From Eledone cirrhosa (lineage: Eukaryota): 64,000 bases of DNA. The translations under genes were made by a program, and so were the position numbers. The DNA is taken from positions 1,488,001 through 1,552,000 of the forward strand of contig OZ024755.1 of assembly GCA_964016885.1 (NCBI GenBank), read 5' to 3'. Positions 6,346 through 63,470 of this stretch are shown here, one piece after another (the stretch's first letter is position 1; each line of letters starts with the position of its first letter). The notes under the pieces were generated by a model that had not been told where the DNA came from, did no database searches, and worked only from the letters and a program-made list of their open reading frames with translations.

Positions 6346-9048
6346 TCAGATGTAGTTTTGGCGTATTTCGGGAAGCATGAGTGTTTTAAAGGGTGCAGTG
6401 TCTCGGCAGCTAACAACTGACGCAGGCAGTTTGTTCCATGCTTCAGCAACTCTAAGCGTGAAAAAATGTTTACGAAAGTCATGGGAGCTGTGGTGTTTTC
6501 TGATCTTGTAGACATGTCCACGTGTGTTAGACACATGGAGATCAAAAAGGTGCTCAGGGTTGTTGTTGGCGAGATGGTTAATAACTTTGTGGGTATTTAC
6601 CAAGTCCATTGCCAGACGTCGGAGCTTCAATGAATTCATTCCCAGGGAAGCAAGGCATTCAGAGTATGGTAGGTGTCTGATGGAGGGTATGCGCTTGGTT
6701 GTACGTCTCTGAACAGTTTCCAGGAGGTCAATGTTCTGAGCAAGATAGGAGTTCTAGACTGATGATGCGAATTCCAAGTGTGGTCGTACCATAGCTGTAT
6801 ACAGCTTTAAATAGATGGCTGGAGAGCGGCTAACAAAGGTCCTGCTGAGTGATGCCGAGACACCCTCGGCCTTCTTGACAATCTTAGAGACGTGCTTTGT
6901 GTTGTGGAGGGAGTATGTGGACGCTGGATTTTTCCTCCAAAAATGCATGGTGGTACACTTGTCCACAGCCAGCTTCAGTTGCCAGTCTGTGATCCATTGC
7001 TGCATTGTGTCCAGGTCTGATTGTAGGAAAAAGTTGTAGATTTCAGTATCAGTCCTTTTGATTTCAAGGTACAGCTTGATGTCCTCTGCATATTTCAGTA
7101 CTGTGGCATTCTGTAACTTGGCATCTATGTCATTAATATATGCCACAGACAAAAGGGGACCAAGAACAGATCCCTGTGGTACACCAGATGACATCTCATA
7201 TGGTGAAGAATGCTGTCCTAGAACCGTGACTACCGTTTTTCGGCTGAGAATGAAGGATTTCAACCAGTTAAAAAGATCATCCCTCACACCCATTGCAGAG
7301 AGTTTTGCCATAAGTCTTTTGTGTGGCACAGAATTAAAAGCCTTAGCAAAGTCAAGGTAAACAACATCCACCCATGAGCCGCTGTCAGTGATCCGGGTGA
7401 TGTCCTCAAGGAACTCGATAAGCTGATCACAGCAGCTGGAGTTAGGGATAAATCCAAATTGTGAGGGCCGGATGAGGCTGTGAGAGCTCCAGAAGTTCCA
7501 AAGTGTTTCTCTGACACAGGATTCCATCAGTTTGGCCATACAGCTAGTAAGACTGACTGGACGATAGTTGACAGGTGACATGCGGTTGCCCTTTTTGAAC
7601 AGGGGAATGACACTGGCAGTTTTCCACTGCTCCGGAGTAGCACCATTGTTGAGACAGTATTGAAAGAAGAAAGAAAGCTGGCGCAAAAGGAAATACCCAC
7701 CACGTTTGAGAAGCAGGTATGTCACACCATCAAGACCAGGGGAGGCATAGTTGCGCTTATTCTTAAGGTGACGTCGCAACATTGCAGGTGTAAATTCCAT
7801 AGTTGTTATGGAATTTGATGTTAGAGATGGTGGAGATGGTACATTCTGGTTTTCAACAGTAAAAATACTTGGATAGCACTCAGCAATGAGTTCTGCGCAT
7901 TCCTTGGGATCGTCAGTGATCTGGCTTGTGTGGGGATTGCGAAGAGGACCAACTGGAGAGTGAGGTCTCTGCTTTGAATGAACATATTTCCAGAACACCT
8001 TACTGTCAGGATTGGTTGTTATGCACTGTTCAAATTCAAGCACTGCCTTCTTTGTCACTTGCTTGAGATGGTTAGAAGATTTATTCCACTTTTTTCTGTT
8101 GGCATCTGATTTATGCAGTTTATATTCCCGTTCAGCGTTCCAACATTCTTTCCTGGCAAGTTGGACCGCTGAAGTTTCCCAAATTGCACTTTTGGGGTGG
8201 TTTTTTCTCTGCTTACGTAGCACTGATGCTGCACACGCTATCCATATTGAGTCCAGGATGCTCTGGAGTATAGTGTTCACATCTCCAGAGTTATACATCT
8301 CATGCCAGTTTGGATGCTGTAGCTCAGTGCAGTACAAGTTCCAATCTGCCCTCTTCCAATCAAAGCAAGCAGATTGGAGATGGCTCTGGTTTTTGTTGCT
8401 GCCCGCAAGTGCCAGATTGGCAATGATCATAGCATGATCAGAGTCGCCTAGAGGTTCCTCAGTAGTACAACTGATAACCACTTCAGGAGTAGTGGTGAAG
8501 ATCAGGTCCAAAGTGTTGTCACCTCTTGTTGGAGAGGTGACTACTTGTGACCAGTTTGAGTCCAGCACTAGCTCAAGGAAATCGTTTGCACTTTGTGGCC
8601 AACGAAAGGTTTCCCAATCGATCTCAGGATGATTGAAGTCACCTGCAATAAACACATAAGTGGCTGTTTTCCTGGCAGCAACTCTGAGGATATCGCAAAG
8701 CTGTGTGTCCTGATGGTAGTTTGGGGGGCGATAAACAACACCAAGCAGAAGTGTTGACATGGTCATACGTATGTCACAAAAAAAAAAAAATTCTTGTGAT
8801 TCGTTCAAATCAACGCAAAGAATTATGGAAAAGTTTGAACGAACGTAGACCATCACACCACCACCACCACAGCGATTAATGCGGTCCTTGCGAAAAAGGT
8901 TGTACCCAATAATGCTGAAAACCCCATCACAGAGTAAGGAATGTGCCCATGTTTCCATGACTGTGATGAAGTCAGGGTCGATGCTTCTGACGTAGGAGTT
9001 AAACAGATGTATCTTGTTGCATAAACTGCGAGCATTTAAGGACAACAA
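6346..9048 (-). pseudogene. LINE ORF2 (APE endonuclease + reverse transcriptase), disrupted
   Basis: Motifs LNARSL, GVVYRPP, GDFNHP, LDLIF, SDH, NYRPVSLTS, YLDFAKAF, SGVPQGSVLGP. YADD is mutated to YAED, there is an in-frame TAG at 6754-6756, and an apparent deletion before HVSKIVKKA. Confidence 0.92.
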
Positions 9049-9326
9049 TTTGTACCCTGCTTGCAGTTTATGATGGTGTGTAGATGGTGGCAGGTTGTTC
9101 TGGTTTAGTTTCCCAAAGTTGTTGCAGTTTATTCATTGCCAGTTATTGTGGGTAGATCACACTCAGACCAGCTGGTATCTCTCTTCCACGTTTCACCAGC
9201 CTTAACAACCCTCCAGATCTGCCCATCATCACGCAGACTAAAACTTTCATGTTGTGCTGAGTTCCGATTCAAGGAAGCTGCAGCACGTAGCTTTGGGCGT
9301 ACATGGGGTGGTAGGCCTGGGCGTGT

Positions 9327-10205
9327 TCAGAAGGTAATCCGATTTTCACGCCCAGCTTTAACAGAGGCCAGATGATATGAGGTTGCCTCTGCGGCGTCTG
9401 AAAAAGACAGCCTGATGTGTCTGGGTTTTGGACCAGGTCGACCAAGGCGGAGAGCACCTTTTGGGGGAACACAGTCTAGGTCTCTGGCTGAGCTGACAGC
9501 AAATGCCTGAAGATCAGCCTTGTCCTCTGGTACCCCAATGGCAATTACTTCATGGGTAGCAGATTCCGCAGTCTTCTCAGTGTGCCCAGATACGGCAAGA
9601 GGTACAGGGAGATTCTTTAGCAATGCATTCCGATAAGACTCCTCATTGTGGGGTCCTACCCGAATGCTTGCCTTTATTCCTGTTACTTCCCTTCTTAAAG
9701 CAGAAATCATTAGTTGCAATTCCGCAAAATCTGTACTGGTCGGTTGTTGTTGTTGTTGATGATGTTCCTCCACGGGAATGTCAGGGGAAGACACAGTCAC
9801 CAGTTGTTGGTGTCGAGATGTACTGGGAGCAGAAGACATGGGTTGTTGTTGTTTCTGATGTTCTCCCACAGGAACAGCAGTAGAAGCCAGTGTCATAGGT
9901 TTTTGCCGTTGTTCAGTAACAATGGTAGAGGAAGACACAGTCATTGGTTTTTGTTGTTGTTTTTCAATAACAGTGGAGGCAGGCACACAGTCCAGACACT
10001 GAAAGGACCAGGATTTTAGCTGGACCATCTCCCATATTCCATCCATCATAGCATTATGATGTCTCTTTTTTTGGCCTGGGATCCTCCGGAAGCCTGTGGC
10101 GCATTGAAGGCAGACAGAGATGTGACAGGTTCCACATTTGACCCAGCGATTACGGAACGAGTTTTCGGGTCCCGTACAGATAATAGATGTGGTTTTCTGG
10201 GCAAT
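9327..10205 (-). pseudogene. LINE ORF1 with N-terminal PHD-like finger and Gln-rich repeats
   Basis: Frame upstream of the listed ORF reads SIICTGPENSFRNRWVKCGTCHISVCLQC...SWSFQCLDC, then IAIGVPE and RLGRPGPKPRHIRLSF (L1-like RRM motifs). Confidence 0.75.
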
Positions 10206-10405
10206 GTTCTATTTTGAAACATCGACAAGTTTTGTCGCCTACTTCATCGATGGATATCACCATGGCAATTTTGTTATTTCTACCCATCCATAGAAAAAAC
10301 ACAGAATGTAAACAATATAGGTTTAGCGCACTTGATTACGATAGAAATAAAATGTCTGTTTTTGTTGTTTTGTTTTTGTGTATTTTGTTTCCGTTTTCCT
10401 AAATA

Positions 10406-13964: not shown

Positions 13965-15172
13965 AGTGTATATATACACCAATCTATAGCAGTGTATACA
14001 CCAATCTATAGCAGTGTATACACCAATCTATAGCAGTGTATACACCAATCTATAGCAGTGTATACATCAATCTATAGCAGTGTATACACCAATCTATAGC
14101 AGTGTATACACCAATCTATAGCAGTGTATACATCAATCTATAGCAGTGTATACATCAATCTATAGCAGTGTATACATCAATCGATACAAGTGTATACATC
14201 AGTCTATACAAGTGTATACATCAGTCTATACAAGTGTATACACCAATCTATAGCAGTGTATACATCAATCTATAGCAGTGTATACATCAGTCTATACAAG
14301 TGTATACATCAATCGATACAAGTGTATACACCAATCTATAGCAGTGTATACATCAATCGATACAAGTGTATACATCAATCTATACTAGTGTATACATCAA
14401 TCTATACTAGTGTATACATCAATCGATACAAGTGTATACATCAATTGATACAAGTGTATACATCAATCTATACTAGTGTATACATCAATCGATACAAGTG
14501 TATACATCAATCGATACAAGTGTATACATCAATCGATACAAGTGTATACATCAATTGATACAAGTGTATACATCAATCTATACTAGTGTATACATCAATC
14601 GATACAAGTGTATACATCAATCGATACAAGTGTATACATCAATCGATACAAGTGTATACATCAATCGATACAAGTGTATACATCAATCGAAACAAGTGTA
14701 TACATCAATCTATACAAGTGTATACATCAATCGATACAAGTGTATACATCAATCGATACAAGTGTATACATCAATCTATACTAGTGTATACATCAATCTA
14801 TACTAGTGTATACATCAGTCTATACAAGTGTATACATCAATCAATACAAGTGTATACATCAGTCTATACAAGTGTATACATCAATCTATACTAGTGTATA
14901 CATCAATCGATACAAGTGTATACATCAATTGATACAAGTGTATACATCAATCTATACTAGTGTATACATCAATCGATACAAGTGTATACATCAATCGATA
15001 CAAGTGTATACATCAATCGATACAAGTGTATACATCAATCGATACAAGTGTATACATCAATCGATACAAGTGTATACATCAATCGATACAAGTGTATACA
15101 TCAATCGATACAAGTGTATACATCAATCTATACAAGTGTATACATCAGTCTATACACCAATCTATACAAGTG
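13965..15172. repeat. 22-bp minisatellite, about 54 copies
   Basis: Unit agtgtatacatcaatcgataca with variants agtgtatacaccaatctatagc and agtgtatacatcaatctatact. Explains the repetitive ORFs at 14190-15208. Confidence 0.97.
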
Positions 15173-15580
15173 AACAGATCATTAGACAGTAAAGACTTTC
15201 ATATTTAATGTGTTGTTATATGTTTGTCTTGCTAATGTGGTTTCATGTGGTACAGGATATTAAAAGTTAACAGGTATTAAATACAGATTGTTAAGTCCAA
15301 AACAGGTCTATCTCTTCTTCAACTATGATTACCTATAATCATAATATATATATATTACCCATCTAGAATCAGCAACTTTACCCCACCCCCGATTGAGAAA
15401 CCCTGTTCAATGAAATAACAATGTGAGGTAATTTAATTATCACTAAATGGGTTTTTTTTGATAATGCTCAATAAATATTTCAATTAAAGGATTTCTTTGA
15501 TATTGGTTTGATGGTTCTGCAAAGTCAGACATTTCGTAATCAATTATTGGAGCAGGTTATATTACAGATGGATTACTATA

Positions 15581-15818: not shown

Positions 15819-16963
15819 GTTCTTTTCTTTTTAGATATTGCGAAATTGCGAACAATTGGTTTAAAACTCAACTATTTATTGAACTATAGGTTATTGGTTC
15901 AATCTCATAATTTAATCATCATTTTTACACCTGCTTTTCCCTGCTGGCATGGAATGGACCAGACTAAATGAGACAGTTAGCCAGTGACCAGATGATCTTC
16001 CTGGTACCTACACTATATTTCTAACTATGGTATATACTGACCGTCTTTGTCGATATGAAAATACATGGGGTAAAATCTCTCACTCTCACACACATATATA
16101 TGATGAGTTTCCTTAGAATTACTGTCTATCAAATTGACAAACAAGACATTAATAAGCCTGGGGCTATAGTAAATAGTTGAAGATCTTGTCCAAGGTGCCA
16201 TGCAATGGGATGGAACCCGAAACTCCGAGGTTGCAAAGCAAACTTCTTAACTGGTATTATGTTTTTCCCCTTAATCCAAAGACATTCCTCTGCTTGGTTC
16301 AGTTTTCTTGACCAGAAAACAAATATCATTCTTACTTCTTGGTTGAAAGTTTTAGTTACAGACGAGGAAACCATCAAAGACCAAAATAGATTTACTCCAA
16401 AAATTAATGTACATGTTTAAATTTACAGAACCATACAACCTGCAGTGATGTAGGAATTATTGTTTTACTACTTTACATATTGTTTTCAGTCATATAGTAG
16501 TGGTCATGCTGGAGCACTGCTGTAAATATTGAGGGCAAAACAGTGGCCAAGCTACAGCACTGCTACAAATATTAGGGGCAATAGGTTGGAATGATATCTA
16601 TGTAACACATGTTAATCAAGAAGTTGTCAGCTCTAAAGACCTATCTACATATTTTCACCAGTTTCTCTCCATTTCACCGTCAGTTTTGTTTTTCTTTTTT
16701 TTGTTTTCATTTCCCAGGTTTGTATAAGGTGGCTGACGAGTTGTTTTTCTCTTCAGCCAGATGTCAACCTTTACAGAATGGTACAATACCATTGATGTTT
16801 GTTGAACCAAACTAAATAATTCCCATTATGTCTGAGAATTAAAGTGGAAATGAAAAGTAGAACTAATAGTTTTATGTATTATTCTAAAAAAAGAAAGAAA
16901 AAAAATCCATTATTTACAAAAATAGATTCTATACATTTCAAAATATATTACCTAAAATAAATA

Positions 16964-17123
16964 TTATTTAAGGTCTGGGTTCATTTGATTTTCACTATGA
17001 AAGTCTGTACTGTCAAACGTGTCTTCAACCGACAGTCGACGTACATTGTCCAATATCATAGATAATCTTTCTTTATTTAAAGTTAATGATAGACTCTTTT
17101 CACTTCCAGAACTTTCCTCTTCC

Positions 17124-17155
<32 letters not shown>

Positions 17156-17425
17156 GTCTTCTTCCTTATTGCCATCAGTTCCTAATGAGGCCATTGTTGT
17201 CAACGTGTCAGCAGGATCATTTATTTGGTTGATGTCTAATAAAGTACTAGTGTTAGAGTTTGTGTCTGTACTTCCTCGGTGACTGACCTGTCTAGAAACA
17301 TCACAGACAGCACTGCCATCAGCAGAATAACCAGAATCACTCAAACAAATGTCATCAGACATAATACTTCCACTTTCTTTACAAATATCTTCACTGTTTA
17401 ATAAACCAGATTTTTCCAGTTGATT
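16964..17425 (-). CDS. Bfr1/PPI-like coiled-coil protein, last coding exon (acidic, Ser-rich tail)
   Basis: Acceptor ttttcttatttcag, phase 0. NQLEKSGLLNSEDICKESGSIMSDDICLSDSGYSADGS...poly-D/E...NPDLK*; 462 nt including stop. Confidence 0.85.
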
Positions 17426-18062
17426 CTGAAATAAGAAAAACCAAAAAAAAAAAAAAGTGTAAATATATAAACCTGGTTATAGATCGATAGGGGGGGGGGG
17501 GACAATGAGGGAGAGCGCGGCAGAAAGGCAGAAGGGGGGGGGGGGGGGGCAAAGAGGGAGAGAGCTTTACTGTGTCTTAATATGTCAGATCATTAAAAGG
17601 TAAAATAAAAACCAATATGGCAGAATTTCGACAGAGTTGCTAAGTTCCAGAGAAAATTGAGCAGGAATTGTGTTAATTAGGAGTGTAGTTAATTACTAAA
17701 TCATTTAATTAATTGTTTGCTTGATAGCTGACTGAATAATGATAGTTAACTGAATCATAATATCATTTAATTAGTAATTAAAAAGTGATATATTAGGAGG
17801 GCGGGGTTGTAGAGAAGACATATTAATGGTTTCAGTTTTGTAAAAATACCCAGTCCACTCTGTAAGGTGGTCATATTGGTGCCATGACAGAAAACACCCA
17901 GTCCAACCTGTCATACTGGTGCCATGACAGAAAACACCCAGCCCACTCTGTCATACTGATACCATGACAAGATGGTGAGGGTGATAACAACCATTGGTAT
18001 TTGGTTTCTAAAAATAGAATTAAAATACAGTGTTTGTTAATATTCCGTGAAATCAAACAAAC

Positions 18063-18179
18063 CTTCAACTGTTGTAGTCTCTCAATTGTTGGCATAATGT
18101 CACAAAAATTGGATGTTGGCGGCAAGTTAACACTTTCAAACAAAGAGAATATTTCAGTAGAATGGGCTAGGGGTTTGTT
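18063..18179 (-). CDS. Bfr1/PPI-like protein exon
   Basis: ttttcttcag / gtttgt, 117 nt, phase 0-0. NKPLAHSTEIFSLFESVNLPPTSNFCDIMPTIERLQQLK. Confidence 0.85.
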
Positions 18180-18282
18180 CTGAAGAAAATAGACAAAAGA
18201 AACTCATTAAAACATGATATTTGATATATATAGAGACTGGTTTTAGAAAATAGGAGAGATTTAAAACAAAAATAGCATATAG

Positions 18283-18432
18283 TTCTATACCAGTAACTAG
18301 ATTAAACTATATCTCTATACTAGTAACTAGATTAAACTATACATCTCTATACCAGTAACTAGATTAAACTATACATCTCTATACCAGTAACTAGATTAAA
18401 CTATATATCTCTATACCAGTAACTAGATTAAA
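18283..18432. repeat. 30-32-bp intronic minisatellite, about 5 copies
   Basis: Unit tctataccagtaactagattaaactatacatc. Confidence 0.9.
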
Positions 18433-18504
18433 TATATTTCTATATTAATATGTCCTGCATAAAAGTTACAATAATTCTTCAACAATTTACAGAAATTATT
18501 ACAT

Positions 18505-18716
18505 TACATATACACCAGCAGGATATATACAACATCATATATACAACATTATATATACACCAGCAGGATATATACACCAGGATATATACAACATTATATA
18601 TACACCAGCAGGATATATACACCAGGATATATACAACATTATATATACACCAGCAGGATATATACAACATTATATATACACCAGCAAGATATATACAACA
18701 TTATATATACAACATA
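18505..18716. repeat. Degenerate minisatellite
   Basis: Repeated atatacaccagcaggatatatacaacatt. Confidence 0.85.
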
Positions 18717-18739
18717 TATTAAATATGACAATAACTCAC

Positions 18740-18864
18740 TAAGGTTTTTTTCCGTCCTTTTCTATTTTTCTTATTTGGTCGATTACTGACACTAAACTCT
18801 TTAAAGAATGTATCATTGCTCTTCTTTAATAAAACATATTTGGTTCCATCATCATCTAAGATCT
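18740..18864 (-). CDS. Bfr1/PPI-like protein exon (basic patch)
   Basis: tttctactttag / gtgagt, 125 nt, phase 1-0. EILDDDGTKYVLLKKSNDTFFKEFSVSNRPNKKNRKGRKKTL. Confidence 0.85.
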
Positions 18865-19064
18865 CTAAAGTAGAAATATAAATAAAATTAACACTTTTCA
18901 GGGAAATAATATGCATACATATACATTTATTTTCATAAATACTTCTGTAATTCTCAAACCTCCATAGTAAAGATATACCACAAATGTTGGTGTGTATTTA
19001 GTTTAGAAGAGGTATACCATAAAGATATACCACAAATGGTGTGTATCTAGTTTAGAATCCAAAG

Positions 19065-19268
19065 TCTAAAGTCCCTCTCAAGCCAGGAAACTCATCAGAC
19101 CGGTGCTTATCTCGGTTTTGTGGCATGAAGCGACTGAGAGTACAAGACTGCCCCTGGACAGGACACCAGTCCATCGCAGGGTTAAACCCCCAGATATTGC
19201 TGGTACTCATTTTCAGTTGAGTAAACTGGAGTGATGTGAAAGGAAGTGTTTTTGCTTAAGAACACACA
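19065..19268 (-). mobile_element. SINE family B copy (central domain resembles MetaSINE-type)
   Basis: Reverse complement has aaccctgcgatggactggtgtcctgtccaggggcagtcttgtactctcagtcgcttcatgccac. Other copies near 24870, 27110, 28870, 38230, 42770 and 62690. Confidence 0.8.
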
Positions 19269-19348
19269 ACCCATCCCAAAAGGTTGCCCATGTCTGGTGT
19301 AGAAGAATGAACTTAAATACTGAGATGAAAACATAAAATGTTCCAAAC

Positions 19349-19503
19349 CTGGAAGGAAAGAAAACTCCTCAGATGGCGATGGTAACGGACTAGAACCTAA
19401 AACTGCGTTGAAATTAGTAAATTGTTGGAGATAATTAATTAAAATATTGCAATGTTGAATACGTTCTGCATTGGGGTTTGGTGCTGCAACTACTGTTTCA
19501 TCC
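19349..19503 (-). CDS. Bfr1/PPI-like protein exon
   Basis: ctttctattttccag / gtttgg, 155 nt, phase 2-1. RDETVVAAPNPNAERIQHCNILINYLQQFTNFNAVLGSSPLPSPSEEFSFLP. Confidence 0.85.
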
Positions 19504-19594
19504 CTGGAAAATAGAAAGATGTATATATATAAACAGATATAAACATATATATATATTTAAAAACACACACACACACACATATATATATTTAAAA

Positions 19595-19626
<32 letters not shown>

Positions 19627-19632
19627 TTAAAA

Positions 19633-19667
<35 letters not shown>

Positions 19668-19892
19668 AATCAGGCCGGTGCTTATCCCGGTTTTATGGCA
19701 TGAAGCGACACCAGTCCGTCGCAGGGTTAAACCCACAGCACACACATATATATATATAAATACACACACACATATATAAACATATGTAAACACACACACA
19801 CATATATATATAAATACACACACACACATATATAAACACACACACGTATATATATATAAATATAAACATAAACACACACAGACAGACATATA

Positions 19893-20769
19893 CAGGGTGA
19901 GGACGATATTTGTTCGCAATTTTCAACTGCTAATTTTATGCAAATTTTTTTTACTTCCGTTGTCACTCTTCTCTTCATAAAAACAGTGACTATATTTCCA
20001 TTATTTATTTTCAGAATAATTGATTATGAATAATTTTGAACCTCCAAATTGGTGGAAGATACAAGGAGTTCTTCTTGGAATCCACGCCGGGAGGACAAAT
20101 AAGGACCAGAAGATCAACTCCCAGAACAACAAATGGCTCGCTGTCTCATCCAAAGACATTCCCAGAGTCATGCAGACAAAGTTTCCAGCGACAACATTGG
20201 TCTTAGGTGTCGTCAGCAGTCAAGGTGACGTCATGCCACCTCACTTCTTCCCTGAGGGCCTCAAGCTGAACACCGATGGCTACATCCGCGTTCTGAGCTA
20301 AGTAGTAAAGCCCTGGATCGACCAGATAGCTGCAGTAGGCCGTACGTGTGGCAGCAAGACTCAGCGCCCTGCCATACCAGCCGAACGACCCAAGCTTCGC
20401 TGTCAGAGAACTTCGTCGACCACACTTCACCTGACATCTGGCCTCCCAGCTCGCCTGACTGCAACCCCCTCGACTTCTTTGTGTGGGGCGCAGTGGAATG
20501 AGATACTAACAGATCTAGCTGCAATACGAAAGACGATCTGAAGGCCAGGATCACAAGTGCCTTTAGGGGCCTAAGTCGGGGGACAGTGATGAAGGCCTGT
20601 AGCCGGTTCCGAGGCCGCCTTGAGGCCATCATCAAAGCCAATGGTGGGTTTATCGAGTGAGATCGATGAAAACAAACTGACCCAAGTTTGATAAATATAT
20701 CTTAAAAAATAAAACTACTGTGTTATTTTTTCCTAGACAGTAATCTTGCGAACAAATATCGTCCGCACC

Positions 20770-20772
<3 letters not shown>
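19893..20772 (+). mobile_element. Tc1/mariner DD37D (maT-type) transposon, internally deleted
   Basis: 27-bp TIRs cagggtgaggacgatatttgttcgcaa / ttgcgaacaaatatcgtccgcaccctg with TA on both sides. Transposase relic WQQDSAPCH...WPPSSPDCNPLDFFVWG has 37 residues between the last two Asp. Stops and a frameshift are present. Confidence 0.93.
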
Positions 20773-20801
<29 letters not shown>

Positions 20802-21003
20802 GCTGACTATGAACGAGTAATGCTAGAGATGTGAAATCTTACATGCATTAATTTCAACTCTTCTTATTAATAACAGCATTGTTTCTTTTCCAGGGACTAT
20901 ATTGAACAATAAACCTCATTAGGTCATGCCATGAGAGTACCCTGGTCAGCCTAGGAATCAATCAGCTGACCCTTATACTTTCATTTCACAACATATTGAG
21001 ATA

Positions 21004-21109
21004 TCTTTCAAACATTGATTACCTTATATAATTAGGCAGGTCTTTCAAATATTGATTACCTTATATAATTAGACAGGTCTTTCAAATATTGATTACCTTA
21101 TATAATTAG
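21004..21109. repeat. 37-bp unit x3 overlapping an exon donor
   Basis: tctttcaaa(c/t)attgattaccttatataattag(g/a)cagg; each unit carries minus-strand ATAAG|GTAATC. Confidence 0.9.
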
Positions 21110-21262
21110 TTTTCTTTTCACTTGTTAATCTTTCTTCTTCTGGATGTTTGCTACGTCGATTCTTCTTCTTCCGAGCAATATCTTTCATAATATTGTAATC
21201 TTTTTCTTGTTTTTTGAAATCTGCTAAAAGTGTTTTCTTCAGTTCTTCTAATTCTTTGATTT
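21097..21262 (-). CDS. Bfr1/PPI-like protein exon
   Basis: tttttcttgtag / gtaatc, 166 nt, phase 1-2. EIKELEELKKTLLADFKKQEKDYNIMKDIARKKKNRRSKHPEEERLTSEKKTNYIR. Confidence 0.85.
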
Positions 21263-21346
21263 CTACAAGAAAAACAAACAAAAATAATGGAATAAATATA
21301 AATTATTTAACCCTTTCATTACCATATTTCTAATGAAAGACACTAC

Positions 21347-21404
<58 letters not shown>

Positions 21405-21581
21405 TGTCCGTGTGTGTCAATGTGTGTGTATTTCTCTTTGCATGTCTTCATGTTGACGCCACTTAAAATTTAGGAGTTCAACATTTGAAGATCAGTAAAA
21501 TAAGTTTCATACATAAAAATAAGGAATGGCATCTGCCTCAAAAAGCTTCATCTAGCCCATGCTAACATAAAAACAATAACA

Positions 21582-21780
21582 ATAATTGTTTCTACTTTTG
21601 TCACAAGGCCAGCAATTATCCCTGTGTATTACTGGTACTTTATTTTATCGACCCCATAAGGAAAAGTTACTTTATTACCCCCGTAAGGCAAAGTTAACCT
21701 CGGCGGAATTTGAACTCAGACCATAAAGGGCCGTAACTCTATGCTGCCAAGCATGGCGTCCGATACTGCCAATCCACTGC
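21582..21780 (-). mobile_element. SINE family A copy
   Basis: Same body as 1036-1165 plus reversed tRNA-like head. A further partial copy lies at 22128-22260. Confidence 0.8.
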
Positions 21781-21827
21781 AACAACAATAATGACAGTGT
21801 AAAAATACTAAAACAAAATTAATTTAC

Positions 21828-21924
21828 CTGAGGTTAATTGTTTAATACTTTTCAGTAGGAATACCTGTCGTTTTTGTTTCACTTCTTCTTTATCTCGTAG
21901 GTTATTAATTCTGTGATAGAATTC
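21828..21924 (-). CDS. Bfr1/PPI-like protein exon
   Basis: gtttttctag / gtaaat, 97 nt, phase 0-1. EFYHRINNLRDKEEVKQKRQVFLLKSIKQLTS. Confidence 0.85.
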
Positions 21925-22470
21925 CTAGAAAAACAAGTCAAAACATGGCCAACTTTAACCCTTTCATATTCCTAATGAAAGACATGTGTTTTAATTAAAA
22001 TTATGATGAAAGGTTTTGAAATGATCAGTTTTGTATCATAAAACCAAGGCAGTTTCAGGTGGTTTGGTATCATAAGAGTTAACCATTTTCATACAATATT
22101 TCTAATAGAAGACAATACTTATGACAACTATCCCAGTACATTACTGGTACTTTATTTCATCGGCCTCGGCGGGATTTGAACTCAGACTATAAAGGGCCGT
22201 AACTCTTTGCGTCAAAGCCTGGCGTCCGACCCTCTACCGATACTGCCAATCCACCGCCCTAAAAAGTTTGAAAATTAATACCTTTTAGTAAGGGACATAA
22301 CTCTTTAGGTCTCAGTCCAACTCATTTTAAAGTGGTTAAGAGAAATATCTTGATGTAAAGTTTTACTCCAATATATTACAGTTTGTGAAACTATTCATCA
22401 ACCTATTTCATTTCAACAACAAACATTGTTGAAGTATATTCCCACACAAAGAATAATTATTACAACTTAC

Positions 22471-22543
22471 ATCGTTTTCCTTGCGTTTCTTTGTCTGTTG
22501 TGCCCTCAGTTCATCAATTTCTTTCTTTTGTGCCCTATACTGT
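22471..22543 (-). CDS. Bfr1/PPI-like protein exon
   Basis: gttttctag / gtaagt, 73 nt, phase 2-0. AQYRAQKKEIDELRAQQTKKRKEND. Confidence 0.88.
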
Positions 22544-22596
22544 CTAGAAAACATAAATACAACAAATTAACACTCCAAATAAATATAAGAGTAAGG

Positions 22597-22825
22597 TGTC
22601 TCTCTGGGAGGGAATGTTGACATTTATATCAACATTCAACAACTGTCGTCTCTCTAGAAGGAAAATGTTAACATTTATGTAAACATTTAACAGCTGTCGT
22701 CTCTCTAGGAGGGAAATAGACATTTATGTCAATATTTAACTGTCATCTCTCTAAAGGGAATGTTGACATTTATGTAAACATTAAACAACTGTCGTCTCTC
22801 TAGATATTGATATTTATGTCAACAA
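22597..22825. repeat. Degenerate tandem repeat of about 50-55 bp, 4-5 copies
   Basis: Repeated tgtcgtctctctagaagggaatgttgacatttatgtaaacatttaacaac. Confidence 0.8.
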
Positions 22826-23119
22826 TTGCTGTGCCTTATTTCTTGATAGAAGGATGCAACAATTTGATTTTGGAAAAGGGCCATAAGGAAGGAAAAAGTG
22901 TTTTGCATTTGGAATTAAATTAGAGAAGAGTATAACGGGTGGAACTGTCAGACAACTTTAACGACACTAGAAGGGTCTGGGGGGTTAGTTTTCTAAAACG
23001 TGGAATGAGAGCAGAGAGAGAGCCAGAAAGAATACTACAGAGCAGTCACCCCAACAACTATCAATTCCTATTAAATATAATATATACAAATGGAAACTTT
23101 AATATAAAGTTATACATAC

Positions 23120-23221
23120 GCTAAAGGCTTCTTAGACCTCTTCAAGCTGTCTATCTCAGCCACAATCGTTTTTTCTTCACGGAGTGTAAAGTTTATACAG
23201 TTTAGTTGCAGTTCTAAATTC
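23120..23221 (-). CDS. Bfr1/PPI-like protein exon (family signature)
   Basis: tttatttaatag / gtatgt, 102 nt, phase 2-2. KNLELQLNCINFTLREEKTIVAEIDSLKRSKKPL. Confidence 0.9.
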
Positions 23222-23731
23222 CTATTAAATAAACAGATATACAATAATTAACATTTATGAAAATATGTTACTTAATATACTTCATCTTCCTTCCACTGGA
23301 ATTTCTTGACACTTCTTCACCATCCATGCACATCACATGTCGATACCAACACAGTCTTCTCTCTTACAAACCAACTTGAATTCCTCTTAAACCCAGTTTT
23401 TCTCTTCATTCAAGCTCTTTAATTCTCTTACATTAACATTGCACATCTCAATTAAATTGGTAATCATCATCATTTAACATTCATTTTCCCTACTAGGAAG
23501 GGTAGGACAAGTCTGCCTAGACCAAGTCAGAACTGATGTGGGGCTACTGACATCCCAGGGGATCTGTTATCTTGCTTACATAGTCTTATATTCTACCAAG
23601 TTCATAGCAGAGGTTGTCACAATTGAAGGGTCTTCCCAGCCCTTCCTTTGGCCAGCTTTCTATGGTTGGATGCCCTTCCTATCACCTAATATGCTAGAAA
23701 ATAAACGACAGAGAAGAAAGCCTTTACATAC

Positions 23732-23802
23732 TTGATAGTTTCATTTATCTTATTTTCATTTTTGTACGTTAAACCGGATTGCAAGTTAGACAAGACGTTA
23801 TT
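23732..23802 (-). CDS. Bfr1/PPI-like protein exon
   Basis: gttcttttccag / gtatgt, 71 nt, phase 0-2. NNVLSNLQSGLTYKNENKINETI. Confidence 0.88.
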
Positions 23803-24475
23803 CTGGAAAAGAACAAAAACAACAATAATGAGGTAAGACAATAACAAAAACTGTAAAAGAAAGAAACAATAATAAAAACTTGTGAAATGTTTATATTATG
23901 GGCAGCAAATATCTAGGATGATCAACAAGATCCCAGTGGGGTGGAGCTCATTAAATTGGACCAAGGAAACAATGTTTCCATTAGTCTTTCCATTGCTGAT
24001 ACTATCTACCAGTGGGAACTCCTGGCAGAAGAAGCAACGTGAAATAAAATGTCTTGCTCAAGGATACATTTCATTGCCTGGTCCGAGAATGAAACTCACA
24101 ACTTCAGAATTGTGAATCCAATTGTCTACACTGTAATATTGCTGGGGTTGGGGTGGTGGGGTGTACAATGACAGTTACAAAGCACTTGGTGGTGACACAG
24201 AGTAAATAAAGATAATTTAAATTATATCAATGATACAGTCTTGAGTTACAACTAACAGCAGTTTCATCTGTTGACTTTTCTTTTGATAGATGAAACTATG
24301 GTTAATCATAATCCAGAATTGTATCATAAACTTAGTAAATTATAAAGATAGTTTAAATTAACACAAATTTCCATGAACAATACATTGAAAGATGATAAAA
24401 TAAGCAGTTTTATATCCATGAATAAATAAAACCACATTACACTGTTTCAAATATTATATAAAATAGTAGACATAC

Positions 24476-24610
24476 CTTTTGAATAAGTTCAGATTTAAGT
24501 AATTTCAAATCTGAAATATTCTGTAATTGTCGTTTAGTACATTCACTTCGATCAGAGGACAAATCTTTCAATGTCTGTCGAATATTTTCCTCCTCAATTG
24601 AATAATGTTT
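24476..24610 (-). CDS. Bfr1/PPI-like protein exon
   Basis: tttatttgtag / gtatgt, 135 nt, phase 0-0. KHYSIEEENIRQTLKDLSSDRSECTKRQLQNISDLKLLKSELIQK. Confidence 0.88.
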
Positions 24611-25816
24611 CTACAAATAAATATAACATTAACCCCTATTTTAATATTTCTACAAATAAATATAATATACAGCATTATTAACCGCTATTTTAAACAACTA
24701 TAGCCATTAACCCTTTAGCAGTTACATTACTCTATATATATTATTGTATTTTTGTGGTAAAGGCTTTATCTTACATAATTATCTCACATAATATTGAATC
24801 TATGAGATTTTGATATTTATTTTGAGAACAATACCTTAACATCAGTATGAATGGCCGGTTACTTCCGTGAAGCCACCAAGCCAATGTTGGACTTACAATC
24901 ATAATGTCGTTGGTTCAATTCCTGGACAAGTTGCTGTGTTGTGTTCTTGAGCAAAACACTTTATCTCACATTGCTCCAGTATACTTAGTTGAAGGTGAGT
25001 ACCAACAGTAGCTGGCAAGTTAATCCTGTGGTAGACCGGCATCCTGTCCAGGGAGAGTTTTGTACTCTCAGTTGTTTCACACCAACGGGATTTTTTGGAT
25101 ATTACTTCTTCCATTTCCCCATGACCTTATAATTGGAAACTTCCAGTTCTAAATAAGGTACTACATCAATTCCAAGGCTAGAAACTGGCTTCTTCCAAGC
25201 TTTGATCTGAGGCTGGTTCTATCAAAAAGCAAACCACACATCCAAAAATCTAATGTTAACAAAAAAACTTCATCCATCTCACTAAGACCATCACTATAAC
25301 AGTTCAATATAATAATGTTGAATTGATAATTGATCAATTGTACTAGAATGATGTACTGTGTCTTGTAAAATAGGTTTGAGATGATTTGAACCTATCAAAC
25401 TTTAAGTAGGGATAAAACTGGAAGAAAAGGTTTTGGGAACACAATTCTTATGAAGATCAGCTACTGTTACCGACTCCTGTTCTAGATAAAGCTTACAACA
25501 GCTAATTCTTATAACAGTTTACATAATTCAAGAACACTAATTCTTAGATTACACTCGTTTAAAACCTGTTGCAGTTATTTCCCTTCTAAAGAATGAGTTG
25601 AAAATGGTTTCTATTACTGACATACATTGAACTGCTAAGATGCCAGATGTATTGTTAATGCTGACCCCAGCAGTTGATAGTACCCCCTTTCAGTCGAGGC
25701 GACTGGAGCAACATGAAATGAAGTGTTTTGCTCAAGAACACATTGTCTGCTCCAGGAATCAGACCCATGACAATACAATCATAAAGCCAACACTTATTAT
25801 TAGGTTGTATGCCTAC

Positions 25817-25853
<37 letters not shown>

Positions 25854-26078
25854 CCACACAACAGACTTCAAGTTTGCATCTACCAAATTCACCCACAGGA
25901 CCTTTGTCTATAGTAGAAAACACATGCCAAAGGTGCCAGACTGTGGGATCTAACCCCAAACTCTAACCTTACTAACAGTGGTTACCCCTGATTGAACCTA
26001 GGACTATCTATCTCTCTCTCACACACACACACCACCACCATCATCATCATATATAGTTTTATAAAATAAGATACTTAC

Positions 26079-26158
26079 AAGAAGTTTGCTTTTCTCCTTT
26101 ATTTGAGACAAATGATCATCTATAGATTTTCGATTTGGGGGACGAAGTTTCTTTATGT
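26079..26158 (-). CDS. Bfr1/PPI-like protein, most 5' confident exon (start codon lies upstream)
   Basis: taatatcag / gtaagt, 80 nt, phase 1-0. xIKKLRPPNRKSIDDHLSQIKEKSKLL. Confidence 0.82.
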
Positions 26159-27317: not shown

Positions 27318-27802
27318 AATAATAATAATAATGAAATTATTGTGTACAGTGCTCAGGTGCACTACAACTCGTCAAAGGTGTATGTATAGTACATAGAATA
27401 ATACACAAATGTCAGGGAAGTGAATAGTGTCATGGTATACATGTGTGTATGTGTATGGAGGGGGAACATTAGCTGTAGTGTTGGCGGATCTCGGGAAGCA
27501 TGGATGCCTTAAAGGATGCAGTGTCTCGACAGCTAACAACTAATGCAGGGAGTTTGTTCCATGCTTCAGCAACTCTGAGCGTGAAAAAATGTTTCCGAAA
27601 GTCATGGGAACTGTGCTGTTTTCTTACTTTGTGGGCATGTCCACGTGTGTTAGACACATGGAAATCAAAAAGGTACTCAGGGTTGTTGTTGGCAACATGG
27701 TTAACAATTTTGTGGGTGTTTACCAAGTCAGTTGCCAGGCGTCGGAGCTTCAATGTATCCATGCCCAGGGAAGCAAGGCGCTCAGAGTATGGTAGATGCC
27801 TG
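27318..27802 (-). mobile_element. 5'-truncated copy of the same CR1/L2 LINE family
   Basis: MDTLKLRRLATDLVNTHKIV...RKHFFTLRVAEAWNKLPA closely matches 6346-6639; same 3' UTR and tail. Confidence 0.93.
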
Positions 27803-28159
27803 ATATGCTTTGGTATATTCTTTCTTTTACTATTTTATTTATTTCTGTCATTAGACTGTGACCAGAGAGAGAGGTGGATCGCAATAAAGTAAGAAAGTAC
27901 ATGTCATAAGGTAAAGTAAGTACATGTCGTAAGGTAAAGTACATATATGTCATTAGGAAGAAGCAGTATTTACAATATCCATAGAAACTGTCATCACGTG
28001 ATGTATAAAAACATGACCTAATTTCATGAAACACGTTCCATGTGTTTTGATTGTGAATTGAAATAAAGCAATTAGAGTTATTTCCCTTCATTTATTTCCT
28101 ACGTTTTTCAGAGAGAGAGAGAGAAAGAGAGAGACAAACAGAAAATGAGAGAGAGAGAC

Positions 28160-33169: not shown

Positions 33170-33536
33170 CGATGAGAGAGATTTAGTCTGATATTAGAAA
33201 AGTAAAGTAAAGTGACCAGATGAGTGAAGTGACAGTTTATCTGTGAAACTCCAGTGACTTATGGCTTGCGACTTCCCTAGGAAGACTTGTACAATTTAAA
33301 CAAGTGTCCAGTATGTCCCACGAATCACCCCACACATCCGTGATACCATACATACCCTCCATCCCACCGTAGGGTAGACACGGCTCTTCAGTTGAGTCAA
33401 CAACCTTTCTAGTGTTGGTGCCACCAAAAATGCACCCAGTGCACCCTGTAAGGTGGCAATATGAAGGGCATCCTGCAGTAGAACCCATGCCAAGAAAAAA
33501 AAAAGGAACGAGAGGACTCTTTAGACATGACAACCT

Positions 33537-33844
33537 CCCCTTGTGGTAGTACCACGATAGAATATACCCCCTTGTGCTGGTACCACGATAAAATATACCC
33601 CCTTGTGGTAGTACCACGATAAAATATACCCCCTTGTGGTAGTACCACAATAGAATATACCCCCTTGTGGTAGTACCACAATAGAATATACCCCCTTGTG
33701 GTAGTACCACAATAGAATATACCCCCTTGTGGTAGTACCACAATAGAATATACCCCCTTGTGGTAGTACCACGATAGAATATACCCCCTTGTGGTAGTAC
33801 CACGATAGAATATACCCCCTTGTGGTAGTACCACGATAAAATAC
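33537..33844. repeat. 31-bp minisatellite x10 with internal palindrome
   Basis: Unit ttgtggtagtaccac(a/g)atagaatataccccc; no spacers. Confidence 0.97.
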
Positions 33845-34406
33845 TCTCGGTAAAGCACGAGTGTGTGCAAGATACAAAAGTCACGCACCACTCTTCATTT
33901 TACTTGCAAAAATAACTATTGTGACAATTTTACTGGTGCGCTACTTTTCCCTTGTGTGTATATATATATATATATAATGAAAATATAGAAATTAATGTGA
34001 GCAAGAAGCCAACAGTATTTCATAATATATAAGTGACTATAACGTCAAAATGGAAAATAATTAACGTAAGATATGGAAAAATAATTCAAACTCAATTAAA
34101 AAAAATCAAGACAGATTTTATCCACAGATTTTGTGAAATCCAGGGAAAAAACCAATAGAGTCTTAACTCAGAATAAAATAAAGTTTAAATACTCATCCTT
34201 CAATTGGGAAAAACTACAAATGCTCTATAGTTTTAAAAAGACTATTTCACGAAACTTTTCAGTGGGATTAGTCACGGTTGGAACCGTTCCTCAGTAGAGC
34301 TCAACACGATAACCATAAGACCCACTGCCAAAATATGCCAAAAAGGGAATTTAAAAGCAGGCTAGTTCACTTCGTGCGGCATTTTGAAAATAAACACACA
34401 TGGAGA

Positions 34407-35358
<952 letters not shown>

Positions 35359-36292: not shown

Positions 36293-36419
36293 CGTTTATA
36301 AAAGTATATGTTGTAAACGGGTCTATAAACATTTTGTTGGAAAGAAAATTACAGCAATATCTGTGTTGATAAATATTACCAAATCTACTTCTATTGTATA
36401 TCTTCCAATGAAGGACAGT
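36293..36419 (-). CDS. Candidate exon, phase-compatible with 31118-30996
   Basis: atttgctatttcag / gtaagt, 127 nt. The only open frame is TVLHWKIYNRSRFGNIYQHRYCCNFLSNKMFIDPFTTYTFIN, ending in phase 1. Confidence 0.4.
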
Positions 36420-37075
36420 CTGAAATAGCAAATCTATCTTCTATTCTTCTTCACAGTAAACTAAAGAGACTAACCATCGCTGTATCTCTCCCTAAACTTG
36501 ACAGTGTGTGGTTGATTGTCAGTGAAACAACGATTTATATGAGAAGCAAATGTTGGCTGGGTTTTTATTTTTGAATGAATGGAGTGAGAGGAGGTGGGCG
36601 AGTGTTTAGAGGATATTGTAGCATTAGTCATTTAGTAGTCATAGTAGGAGATGGTGAGGGTGGGGTGGGAGGGGAGGGAGGAGAGAAGATAGAGAGATGG
36701 GTTGGAGGTAGATGGAGAGAGGGAGGGGGGAACATATTTACGGGCGGAGAGAGGCAGAGAAATAGAGACGGAGGGGAAAAAAACAGAAGCAGGGACGAAG
36801 AGAGGCAAATAGATAGAGGGAGGGTGAAACAGACATATTGATGGGGAGGAGAAGTAACCTCCTAGTGACTCAGTGTTATGTCGTCTGCTTGTTAGAAACT
36901 GTATTCCTTACAAAGTCGTTAAGTGAACCATCATGGTTCGCCACATTACATACTATGTAAATATTACATCAATTATGACAGATAATAAAGACTAATTTAT
37001 CTCATTTACTGCTGGTAATATAGAGAAGATATTAGACCAATGTTGGGTTTTATTGTGAAAATAAACAAAACATTA

Positions 37076-37813
37076 ACAGAAACACATATACACACACAGA
37101 AACTCATATATACACACACAGAAACTCATATATACACACACAGAAACTCATATATACACACACAGAAACTCATATATACACACATAAACACATATATACA
37201 CACACAGAAACTCATATATACACACACAGAAACTCATATATACACACAGAAACTCATATATACACACAGAAACACATATACACACAAACAGAAACTCATA
37301 TATACACACATAATCACACATATACACACAGAAACACATATACACACAAACAGAAACTCATATATACACACAGAATCACATATATACACACACAGAAACT
37401 CATATATACACACACAGAAATTCATATACACACACAGAAACACATATACACACACAGAATCACATATATACACACACAGAAACTCATATATACACACACA
37501 GAAACTCATATACACACAAACAGAATCACATATATACACACACAGAAACTCATATATATACACACAGAAACACATATACACACAAACAGAATCACATATA
37601 TATACACACAGAAACTCATATATACACACACAGAAAGTCATATATATACACACACAGAAACTCATATATATACACACACAGAAACTCATATATACACACA
37701 CACAGAAACTCATATATACACACACAGAAACTCATATATACACACACAGAAACTCATATATACACACACAGAAACTCATATATACACACACAGAAACTCA
37801 TATATACACACAC
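37076..37813. repeat. 20-26-bp microsatellite-derived minisatellite
   Basis: Unit cagaaactcatatatacacaca with length variants; explains ORF 37040-37837. Confidence 0.95.
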
Positions 37814-38229
37814 AAGCGGAAACACAAGAAGCGGTAAAAATGATTTTGTTTAAAATGAAATTTAACCTTTTGTATGCGTCATGTTATTTCGAGTTAGTCC
37901 TAATTAAATAAACCTATCACCAAAAAATGTTCCAGCTGTGACGTCTCGTCTTTTGTTTATATATTATATTAATAATTGGTCGATTAACCACATTAGAGGG
38001 TCCCTGGTTCATTTCTCATTCTAGCTGCTATAACAGCCAATCTTCCTCAAATTACACCCACTCTACTTTGTGTTGACAACTCACCCCTATGCAGGTTTAG
38101 CTGGCCTCCTCCAAGATATCTCGTTGGAGGTGTCTTGGATGATTTAATGATAGGGATCCCAGTCCTATCATAAGACCACTCTACTATAGGGAGGGGGGGG
38201 GGGCACATATTTGATAGTGTAATCCAAGA

Positions 38230-62690: not shown

Positions 62691-62978
62691 AGGTTCGTGG
62701 CTTAGTGGTTAGAGAATTGGATTCGCAAGCGTGAGGCTGCAGGTTTGATTCCGAGACCAGGTGATGCGTTATGTCATTGAGCAAAACACTTTATTTCACG
62801 TTCTTTCTGCCAAGAGTTGCAACCAGTTGATAGTATCTGTAATGGAAACATTGCTTCCTTGCTCCAATTTGATGAGCTCCTATCAATGAAACATAATTTA
62901 AAAGATTCTTTTGCATAGAATTCTGTTGGAAGGTTTAAATTTAAATAGGAACACTGTAAAGAGGAAGTTAATTGTATC

Positions 62979-63388
62979 GGACTGTCTCTGGCAGCTTGCT
63001 ATCTAAAGGGTTATCTTAAGTATAGGGGACTGTCTCCGGCAGCTTACTATCTAAAGGATTATCTTAAGTATAAGGGACAGTCTCTGGCAGCTTGCTATCT
63101 AAAGGGTTATCTTAAGTATAGGGCACTGTCTCTGGTAGCTTGCTATCTAAAGGGTTATCTTAAGTATAGGGGACTGTCTTTGGCAGCTTGCTATCTAAAG
63201 GGTTATCTTAAGTATAAGGGACAGTCTCCAGCAGGTTGCTATCTAAAGGGTTATCTTAAGTATAAGGGACAGTCTCCGGCAGGTTGCTATCTAAAGGGTT
63301 ATCTTAAGTATAAGGGACAGTCTCCGGCAGGTTGCTATATAAAGGGTTATCTTAAGTATAGGGGACTGTCTCTGGCAGCTTGCTATCA
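62979..63388. repeat. 48-bp intronic minisatellite, about 8.5 copies
   Basis: Unit ggactgtctctggcagcttgctatctaaagggttatcttaagtatagg. Confidence 0.95.
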
Positions 63389-63470
63389 AGAGGGTTAAAG
63401 ACATTTGCATGAAACGCAGCAAACTTTGGTAGTTAAGTGGTTCATTACAATATTTTTCATTATATTTTAG

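Follow-up and report, generated by a model that had tools for sequence, protein, structure and literature searches.

An intron-rich gene of Eledone cirrhosa as a probable animal member of the Bfr1 family

Yeast Bfr1 binds to mRNA, associates both with polysomes and with the endoplasmic reticulum (ER), and is required for translation of ERG4; its ER location is lost when six RNA-contact residues are changed and thus requires the binding of RNA (PMC6859859). It co-purifies with Scp160, the orthologue of vigilin, in an RNA-dependent manner (PMC8783092). Like yeast Bfr1, the trypanosome protein ERBP1 is mRNA-binding and located at the ER, despite little sequence identity (PMC7025706). Within the literature searched, Bfr1 has been studied in yeast and trypanosomatids only. 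Here, we analyze a minus-strand gene in a stretch of 64,000 nucleotides from Eledone cirrhosa (contig OZ024755.1, positions 1,488,001 to 1,552,000; hereafter the window, to which all coordinates refer), for which an earlier note had proposed 11 exons carrying the motif series of fungal Bfr1 and plant PPI proteins. Sequence comparisons make it highly probable that the encoded protein belongs to the Bfr1 family (IPR039604 / PTHR31027), and the locus is, as read from its sequence, an intact 12-exon cephalopod gene with two alternative start exons.

All eight motifs quoted in the earlier note are present on the minus strand at the expected places, seven inside one exon and one across two exons, and the homology to fungal Bfr1 that had been drawn from them is borne out by profile, profile-profile and block tests with decoys. 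An alignment of 18 fungal-side sequences retrieved 355 proteins, 120 of which were listed; the listed proteins with a named organism are basidiomycetes, and many of the 120 are called 'nuclear segregation protein Bfr1', 'BFR1' or 'multicopy suppressor of BFA' by their sources. Twenty-six source-named fungal Bfr1 proteins out of these 120, the names being automatic, formed the test set. A profile of 22 animal cores (21 named, one unnamed) matched all 26 with E-values of 1.2e-32 to 2.2e-49 (database size 5.8 billion), the best of 26 reversed and 260 heptad-shuffled decoys reaching 2.7 bits. Conversely, the fungal profile recovered 23/23 animal sequences at E ≤ 8.5e-5, with 42.1 bits (E 1.7e-5) for the Eledone protein and 3.5 bits for the best of 201 decoys. 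When both profiles were aligned using hhalign, the match was scored at 99.94% (E 1.2e-36) over 378 columns with 20% identity. Tested block by block, the hairpin tip described below exceeded the best decoy in all 26 fungal Bfr1 proteins, as did the C-terminal half, which is free of the long helices, against the best of 546 decoys; the lysine-rich and last blocks did so in 24/26. Moreover, the Atlas returned a 'Nuclear segregation protein family' cluster (score 0.96) for both queries, and the same motif order can be followed by eye in a published alignment of S. cerevisiae Bfr1 and ERBP1 (PMC7025706 Fig. S1). Because the decoys score low (all below 4 bits), the half without coiled coils matches alone and the motifs keep the same order along 378 columns, the likeness to Bfr1 is, at the level of sequence, not a coiled-coil artefact; the searches thus yield more than the generic coiled-coil matches named beforehand as the outcome that would speak against the family.

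Pfam returned nothing above its curated cut-offs for three cephalopod proteins, 19 animal and 14 fungal members, the matches to family members being weak, generic and all below those cut-offs; the named fungal Bfr1 proteins likewise have no Pfam family in the copy used. On the COG1340 side, some fungal matches bear the JGI label 'uncharacterized coiled-coil DUF342 family protein', and a few carry PF23435. Eight of the 120 listed fungal Bfr1 records (P0220, P0240, P0252, P0266, P0286, P0324, P0325 and P0334; 700-790 residues) contain an extra PF01248 domain (ribosomal L7Ae/L30e/S12e/Gadd45), reflecting either merged models of a conserved neighbour gene or a true fusion to an RNA-binding fold.

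With regard to gene structure, the 11 GT-AG exons proposed between 26158 and 16964 were confirmed to chain in phase, yielding 526 codons plus the stop, in line with the about 527 claimed. AG acceptors are found at 11/11 and GT donors at 10/10 of the expected sites, and each exon corresponds to exactly one open frame. The exon at 26158, whose RPPNRKSID motif had been taken for the protein's N-terminus, begins with a splice acceptor rather than a start codon, so that the 11-exon model is 5'-incomplete. When N-terminal sequences from five relatives were used to scan the region upstream, two start exons were located, lying further upstream than the earlier model reached. The gene therefore spans at least 16964-45335 on the minus strand, with 12 coding exons per isoform:

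45311-45335, minus strand: alternative first coding exon A; ATG, eight codons plus one base; 535-residue product, like Octopus isoform X2.
36293-36332, minus strand: alternative first coding exon B; ATG, 13 codons plus one base; 540-residue product, like Octopus isoform X1.
26079-26158, minus strand: exon 2; RPPN motif and beginning of the first long helix.
24476-24610, minus strand: exon 3; coiled-coil helix.
23732-23802, minus strand: exon 4; end of the first helix, YKNE turn and beginning of the conserved hairpin tip.
23120-23221, minus strand: exon 5; EEK..V.EI..L.RSKK motif, the block in which the family is best conserved; single copy by genome search.
22471-22543, minus strand: exon 6; returning helix.
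21828-21924, minus strand: exon 7; returning helix.
21097-21262, minus strand: exon 8; end of the returning helix, with two conserved aromatic positions; single copy by genome search.
19349-19503, minus strand: exon 9; P..C..LI.YL helix and a proline/serine linker.
18740-18864, minus strand: exon 10; lysine-rich disordered loop; its 5' junction is four residues shorter than in relatives.
18063-18179, minus strand: exon 11; H.P..F..L..P block and last conserved helix.
16964-17425, minus strand: exon 12; acidic disordered tail, rich in serine, with a mollusc-only motif, an aspartate run and the stop codon.

Start exon A is the best ungapped match to the X2 N-terminus, has a G/GT donor in phase 1 and leaves the spliced frame open. 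Since in-frame stops precede its ATG and a pyrimidine-rich acceptor lies at about 45390, a non-coding exon further upstream is likely. Start exon B scores 50 against the X1 N-terminus, the next best site scoring 27, and carries a G/GTAAGT donor in the required phase. The 535-residue product is identical to Octopus bimaculoides isoform X2 at 421 of 539 aligned positions and the 540-residue product to isoform X1 at 424 of 544 (78% in both cases). Sharing this identity and the same two N-terminal isoforms, the uncharacterised Octopus genes LOC106877082 and LOC115210398 are orthologues, from which the Eledone copy differs in that it lacks four residues at one junction and has a longer run of aspartates. 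This run of about a dozen aspartates is encoded by a GAT/GAA repeat at approximately 17120-17165 (minus strand) that is absent from the aligned octopod relatives.

The spliced product is collinear with the proteins of three relatives at 11/11 junctions, with a four-residue gap at one and a one-residue gap near another. One of these relatives (P0003) is a 1743-nucleotide assembled contig that is most likely a transcript, as its 525-residue frame leaves little room beyond it. Support for splicing of the Eledone gene is thus indirect, through its relatives. For the four missing residues, two AG..GT micro-exon candidates were found, neither of which encodes similar residues. Exons 5 and 8 were searched in the 3.0-Gb genome and occur at one place each. 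Among 24 sequencing runs listed for the last exon, four hold nearly all of its words, the kind of run not being on record, and 20 hold a share of 0.05-0.07; none of those recorded as RNA holds more than a small share, and the listing gives no evidence of expression. The only AATAAA/ATTAAA polyadenylation signals within 1.46 kb past the stop codon lie at 15880 and 15916 (minus strand), which suggests a 3' untranslated region of about 1.1 kb.

A search with one exon returned three octopod proteins, and an Octopus core query matched 35 proteins among 8000 candidates scored, from cephalopods, bivalves, gastropods, a chiton, an annelid, a hemichordate and a crinoid, together with two weak matches of fungal type. 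The latter were reached by this single octopus query at E 1e-4, and one of them clusters with Meira miltonrushii. A profile of 23 matched proteins retrieved 1618 representatives at E ≤ 0.001, the best 150 of which were listed; 20 of these, picked from animal-side branches of a first tree, were looked up and 14 carried names (Nematostella, Trichoplax, Sanderia, Cyprideis, Chamberlinius, Cloeon, Caligus, Sphaerothecum, Syssomonas, Sycon, Paramacrobiotus, Acanthaster, Apostichopus and Capsaspora). The phyletic survey that the earlier note had called for thus places relatives in a sponge, a placozoan, cnidarians, a tardigrade, arthropods, an annelid, molluscs, echinoderms, a hemichordate and unicellular holozoans; no vertebrate, fly or nematode is among the named matches, a sample that cannot show absence.

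A quick maximum-likelihood tree was built from 57 cores and 390 columns, with a midpoint root and no clade test. Its 24 animal-labelled rows (the Eledone protein, 21 named proteins and two unnamed ones assigned from their neighbours) form one side of a branch together with four unnamed rows, with a Shimodaira-Hasegawa-like approximate likelihood ratio test (SH-aLRT) value of 98. The six fungi group together (SH-aLRT 99), and three unicellular holozoans are placed between animals and fungi. This tree fits vertical descent. Horizontal transfer from fungi or contamination was rejected, the gene being intron-rich and on a long contig, with animals apart from fungi and holozoans in between.

As regards protein anatomy, two AlphaFold models stood in for the Eledone protein, that of the Octopus orthologue, built with 23 sequences, and that of the Trichoplax member, built with 120. 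Both show the same secondary structure: a long helix, a short turn, a 17-residue helix, a turn and a helix of 135-150 residues, followed by a short helix with a conserved cysteine, a disordered loop and a small two-helix end domain. Residues 24 to 257, approximately, are accordingly predicted to form one long antiparallel helical hairpin with the most conserved block at its tip; beyond it, the prediction continues with a short conserved helix and a disordered loop rich in lysine, then a small end domain of helices and an acidic tail that is again disordered. At the hairpin tip lies a basic patch, with lysine or arginine at Octopus position 139 in 23/23 named animals. The loop has 12 lysines or arginines and two acidic residues in 36 positions, and the tail 39 acidic residues and 34 serines or threonines in 146. 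The 19-residue hydropathy maximum is 0.60 in the Eledone protein and at most 1.51 in all 23 named animals, so that by hydropathy none of them has a membrane anchor; the Eledone family member is predicted to be helix-rich and has no canonical RNA-binding domain. Two Capsaspora records (P0107 and P0340) differ in that one gene model has a hydrophobic C-terminal stretch (hydropathy 2.39) and the other does not. This is likely a gene-model difference; if real, the stretch would resemble a PPI1-type anchor.

The structure prediction and Foldseek comparison suggested in the earlier note delivered the hairpin; neither model gave a Foldseek match at E ≤ 0.001. Among solved structures searched by sequence, the best match was a designed coiled coil (E 0.016). 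A VIA structure search gave a top Z of 12.9, to SMC and cohesin arms over residues 4-235, which is within the usual range for long helices. The structural matches are antiparallel coiled coils (SMC, dynein stalk, chemoreceptors) covering residues 4 to 240, approximately, at scores common for long helices; they support the hairpin shape of the models and are silent on function, and the C-terminal domain is barely covered by the fold searches.

The tail carries a 32-residue motif that ends in an R-Q-x-S site. Its profile matched 50 of 340 proteins, all source-named ones being molluscs, with no pass in the named non-mollusc animals, holozoans or fungi checked. R-x-x-S is presumably a kinase site.

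By analogy with Bfr1 and ERBP1, we lean towards the reading that the animal protein is an adaptor of messenger ribonucleoprotein particles at the ER and on polysomes. It would act as a soluble adaptor on mRNAs under translation at the ER, where, with no classical RNA-binding domain, the basic patch next to the hairpin tip and the loop rich in lysine may contact RNA or the ribosome. Having no membrane anchor, the protein could be carried to the ER on membrane-bound polysomes, in the manner of yeast Bfr1. Once there, it would support translation of its bound mRNAs and hold them out of processing bodies (P-bodies), probably within the same particles as vigilin, and the mollusc-only serine-rich tail motif might represent a phosphorylation-controlled add-on.

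A number of observations weigh against this reading. In the literature searched, there are no experiments on any animal Bfr1 member. The yeast RNA cross-link residues K138 and F239 are called the most conserved (PMC6859859); by eye they map to alanine and glutamate in the octopus proteins, the K138 column being alanine in 13 of the 23 named animals and the F239 column variable. Neither residue is kept in the basidiomycete members either, and these contacts are a yeast feature that is not known to be diagnostic of the family. The position of yeast Y225 is ambiguous by one heptad, and the other three contact residues cannot be reliably placed; the idea, formed by eye, that Y225 is conserved in animals was dropped, as the published alignment permits a register one heptad off. 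ERBP1 and Bfr1 differ in their targets and in stress-granule entry (PMC7025706), and yeast ploidy control, P-body repression and brefeldin A resistance are independent of RNA binding by Bfr1 (PMC6859859). Both structural models have a low predicted template modelling score (0.43 for Octopus and 0.50 for Trichoplax, with mean predicted local distance difference test values of 69.9 and 81.9, respectively). As to the family assignment itself, the Eledone-versus-fungi score includes a composition bias of 31.6 bits, the N-terminal block alone exceeds the decoys in 4/26 and the P..C..LI.YL block alone in 2/26 fungal proteins, and the link to S. cerevisiae Bfr1 runs through automatically named basidiomycete proteins and a reading by eye.

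Since the ploidy, P-body and brefeldin A roles in yeast survive the loss of RNA binding, the conserved function may instead be a protein-protein one. The main rival, which we consider rather unlikely, is accordingly a Bfr1-family scaffold for secretory traffic, spindle or ploidy control, with RNA binding incidental or lost in animals. It would also suit the absence of K138 and F239 from animals and the Leishmania member's being a likely substrate of a mitotic spindle kinase (10.1101/2025.09.19.677349). On the other hand, the yeast and trypanosome members are both mRNA-binding and ER-located despite their little identity (PMC7025706), and both animals and fungi conserve the basic patch and the lysine-rich loop, which argues for the adaptor. 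Binding and stimulation of a membrane ion pump, as by Arabidopsis PPI1, is improbable. PPI1 has three predicted coiled coils and is found mainly at the ER (PMC11394911), and the kinship to plant PPI1 suggested earlier survives as a lead: a PPI1 cluster was found in the Atlas at rank 23 with a score of 0.89 and 194 shared features, for the hemichordate query only, scores below 0.9 counting as leads and fungal Bfr1 clusters ranking higher. However, a transmembrane domain is predicted for PPI1 (PMC11394911), which also has Pfam families of its own (PF27883, PF28572), and 0/23 named animal members have such an anchor. That the gene is a decaying or unexpressed copy in E. cirrhosa is more improbable still. 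The RNA-recorded runs described above and the four residues missing without a fitting micro-exon would agree with decay, but the 12 exons contain no stop or frameshift, both start exons are kept, identity to the Octopus orthologues is at the level given above, the terminal branch (0.14) compares with 0.09 and 0.12 in relatives, and the two exons searched revealed no second copy. An unrelated animal coiled-coil protein with a generic likeness to Bfr1 is largely refuted: the sub-threshold Pfam matches, the unrelated helical hairpins from the fold searches and the composition bias would be expected of one, whereas the reversed and shuffled controls, the matching C-terminal half and the extended collinearity would not, and named fungal Bfr1 proteins equally lack a Pfam family.

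Compared with S. cerevisiae and other fungal Bfr1 proteins, the Eledone family member thus shares a collinear motif series over about 380 residues, an all-helical prediction, a lysine-rich loop and the lack of both a classical RNA-binding domain and a membrane anchor. It differs in sequence (about 20% identity) and in that the fungal C-terminal helix past the last block is truncated and gives way to an acidic disordered tail of about 145 residues; most of the yeast C-terminal coil is dispensable (PMC6859859). Trypanosoma brucei ERBP1 and Leishmania NSP are assigned to the same InterPro family (PMC7025706; 10.1101/2025.09.19.677349) and, by eye, resemble the animal protein in motif order, the histidine-containing last block and the acidic C-terminus. 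They have a basic residue or glutamine at the K138 column, mostly alanine in animals, and the ERBP1 partner ERBP2 is kinetoplastid-specific (PMC7025706).

The description of this gene as an undescribed system was overstated, the family being named and having characterised members, and as an overlooked one in part, since a review cites predicted nematode homologues (PMC8783092). Animal members are already known to databases. One record among the relatives (H2) is named 'Uncharacterized protein C458.02c', which we take to be a fission-yeast Bfr1 homologue; a literature search for this name found no paper. What stands is that the literature searched, which leaves most subscription papers outside, contains no experimental work on an animal member and nowhere sets out how widely the family occurs across animals, PMC13659451, PMC6940804 and PMC10939154 included; so far as that literature goes, the animal branch is unstudied. 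A vertically inherited animal branch in at least eight phyla would make the Scp160/vigilin-Bfr1 pair testable as an ancient unit for mRNA translation at the ER, and supplies a name for genes that at present carry the labels 'uncharacterised', 'DNA ligase 1-like', 'myosin heavy chain-like' or 'NST1-like'. The result adds a useful annotation and poses a tractable question rather than revealing a system of a new kind. More speculatively, and with considerable doubt, Bfr1 could be an ancestral animal gene, an ER-polysome partner of vigilin from sponges to echinoderms that was lost in vertebrates and gained a phosphorylation-controlled tail in molluscs; if true, human HDLBP works without a partner still present in most animals.

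Several other elements were noted in the window. The intron between exons 8 and 9 holds an element at 19890-20775 with terminal inverted repeats and interrupted frames, the arms (19868-19919 and 20746-20797, flanking microsatellite included) being 81% complementary. Its frames resemble a Tc1/mariner transposase; the piece tested has no Pfam match. Retroelement-like fragments without Pfam matches lie inside the long first introns at 27469-27834 and 39260-39904 (both minus strand). A retrotransposon of the long interspersed nuclear element type occupies 6754-10208 (minus strand), with a 792-codon frame containing endonuclease and reverse transcriptase domains (Pfam E 1e-14 and 2e-33); it is preceded by a 293-codon cysteine-containing frame without a Pfam match and followed by broken 3' pieces at 6346-6753, which the fragment at 27469-27834 resembles by eye. 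Long simple or tandem repeats with spurious open frames are found at 14166-15208, 18280-18720, 33400-35130, 37019-37911 and 62949-63398.

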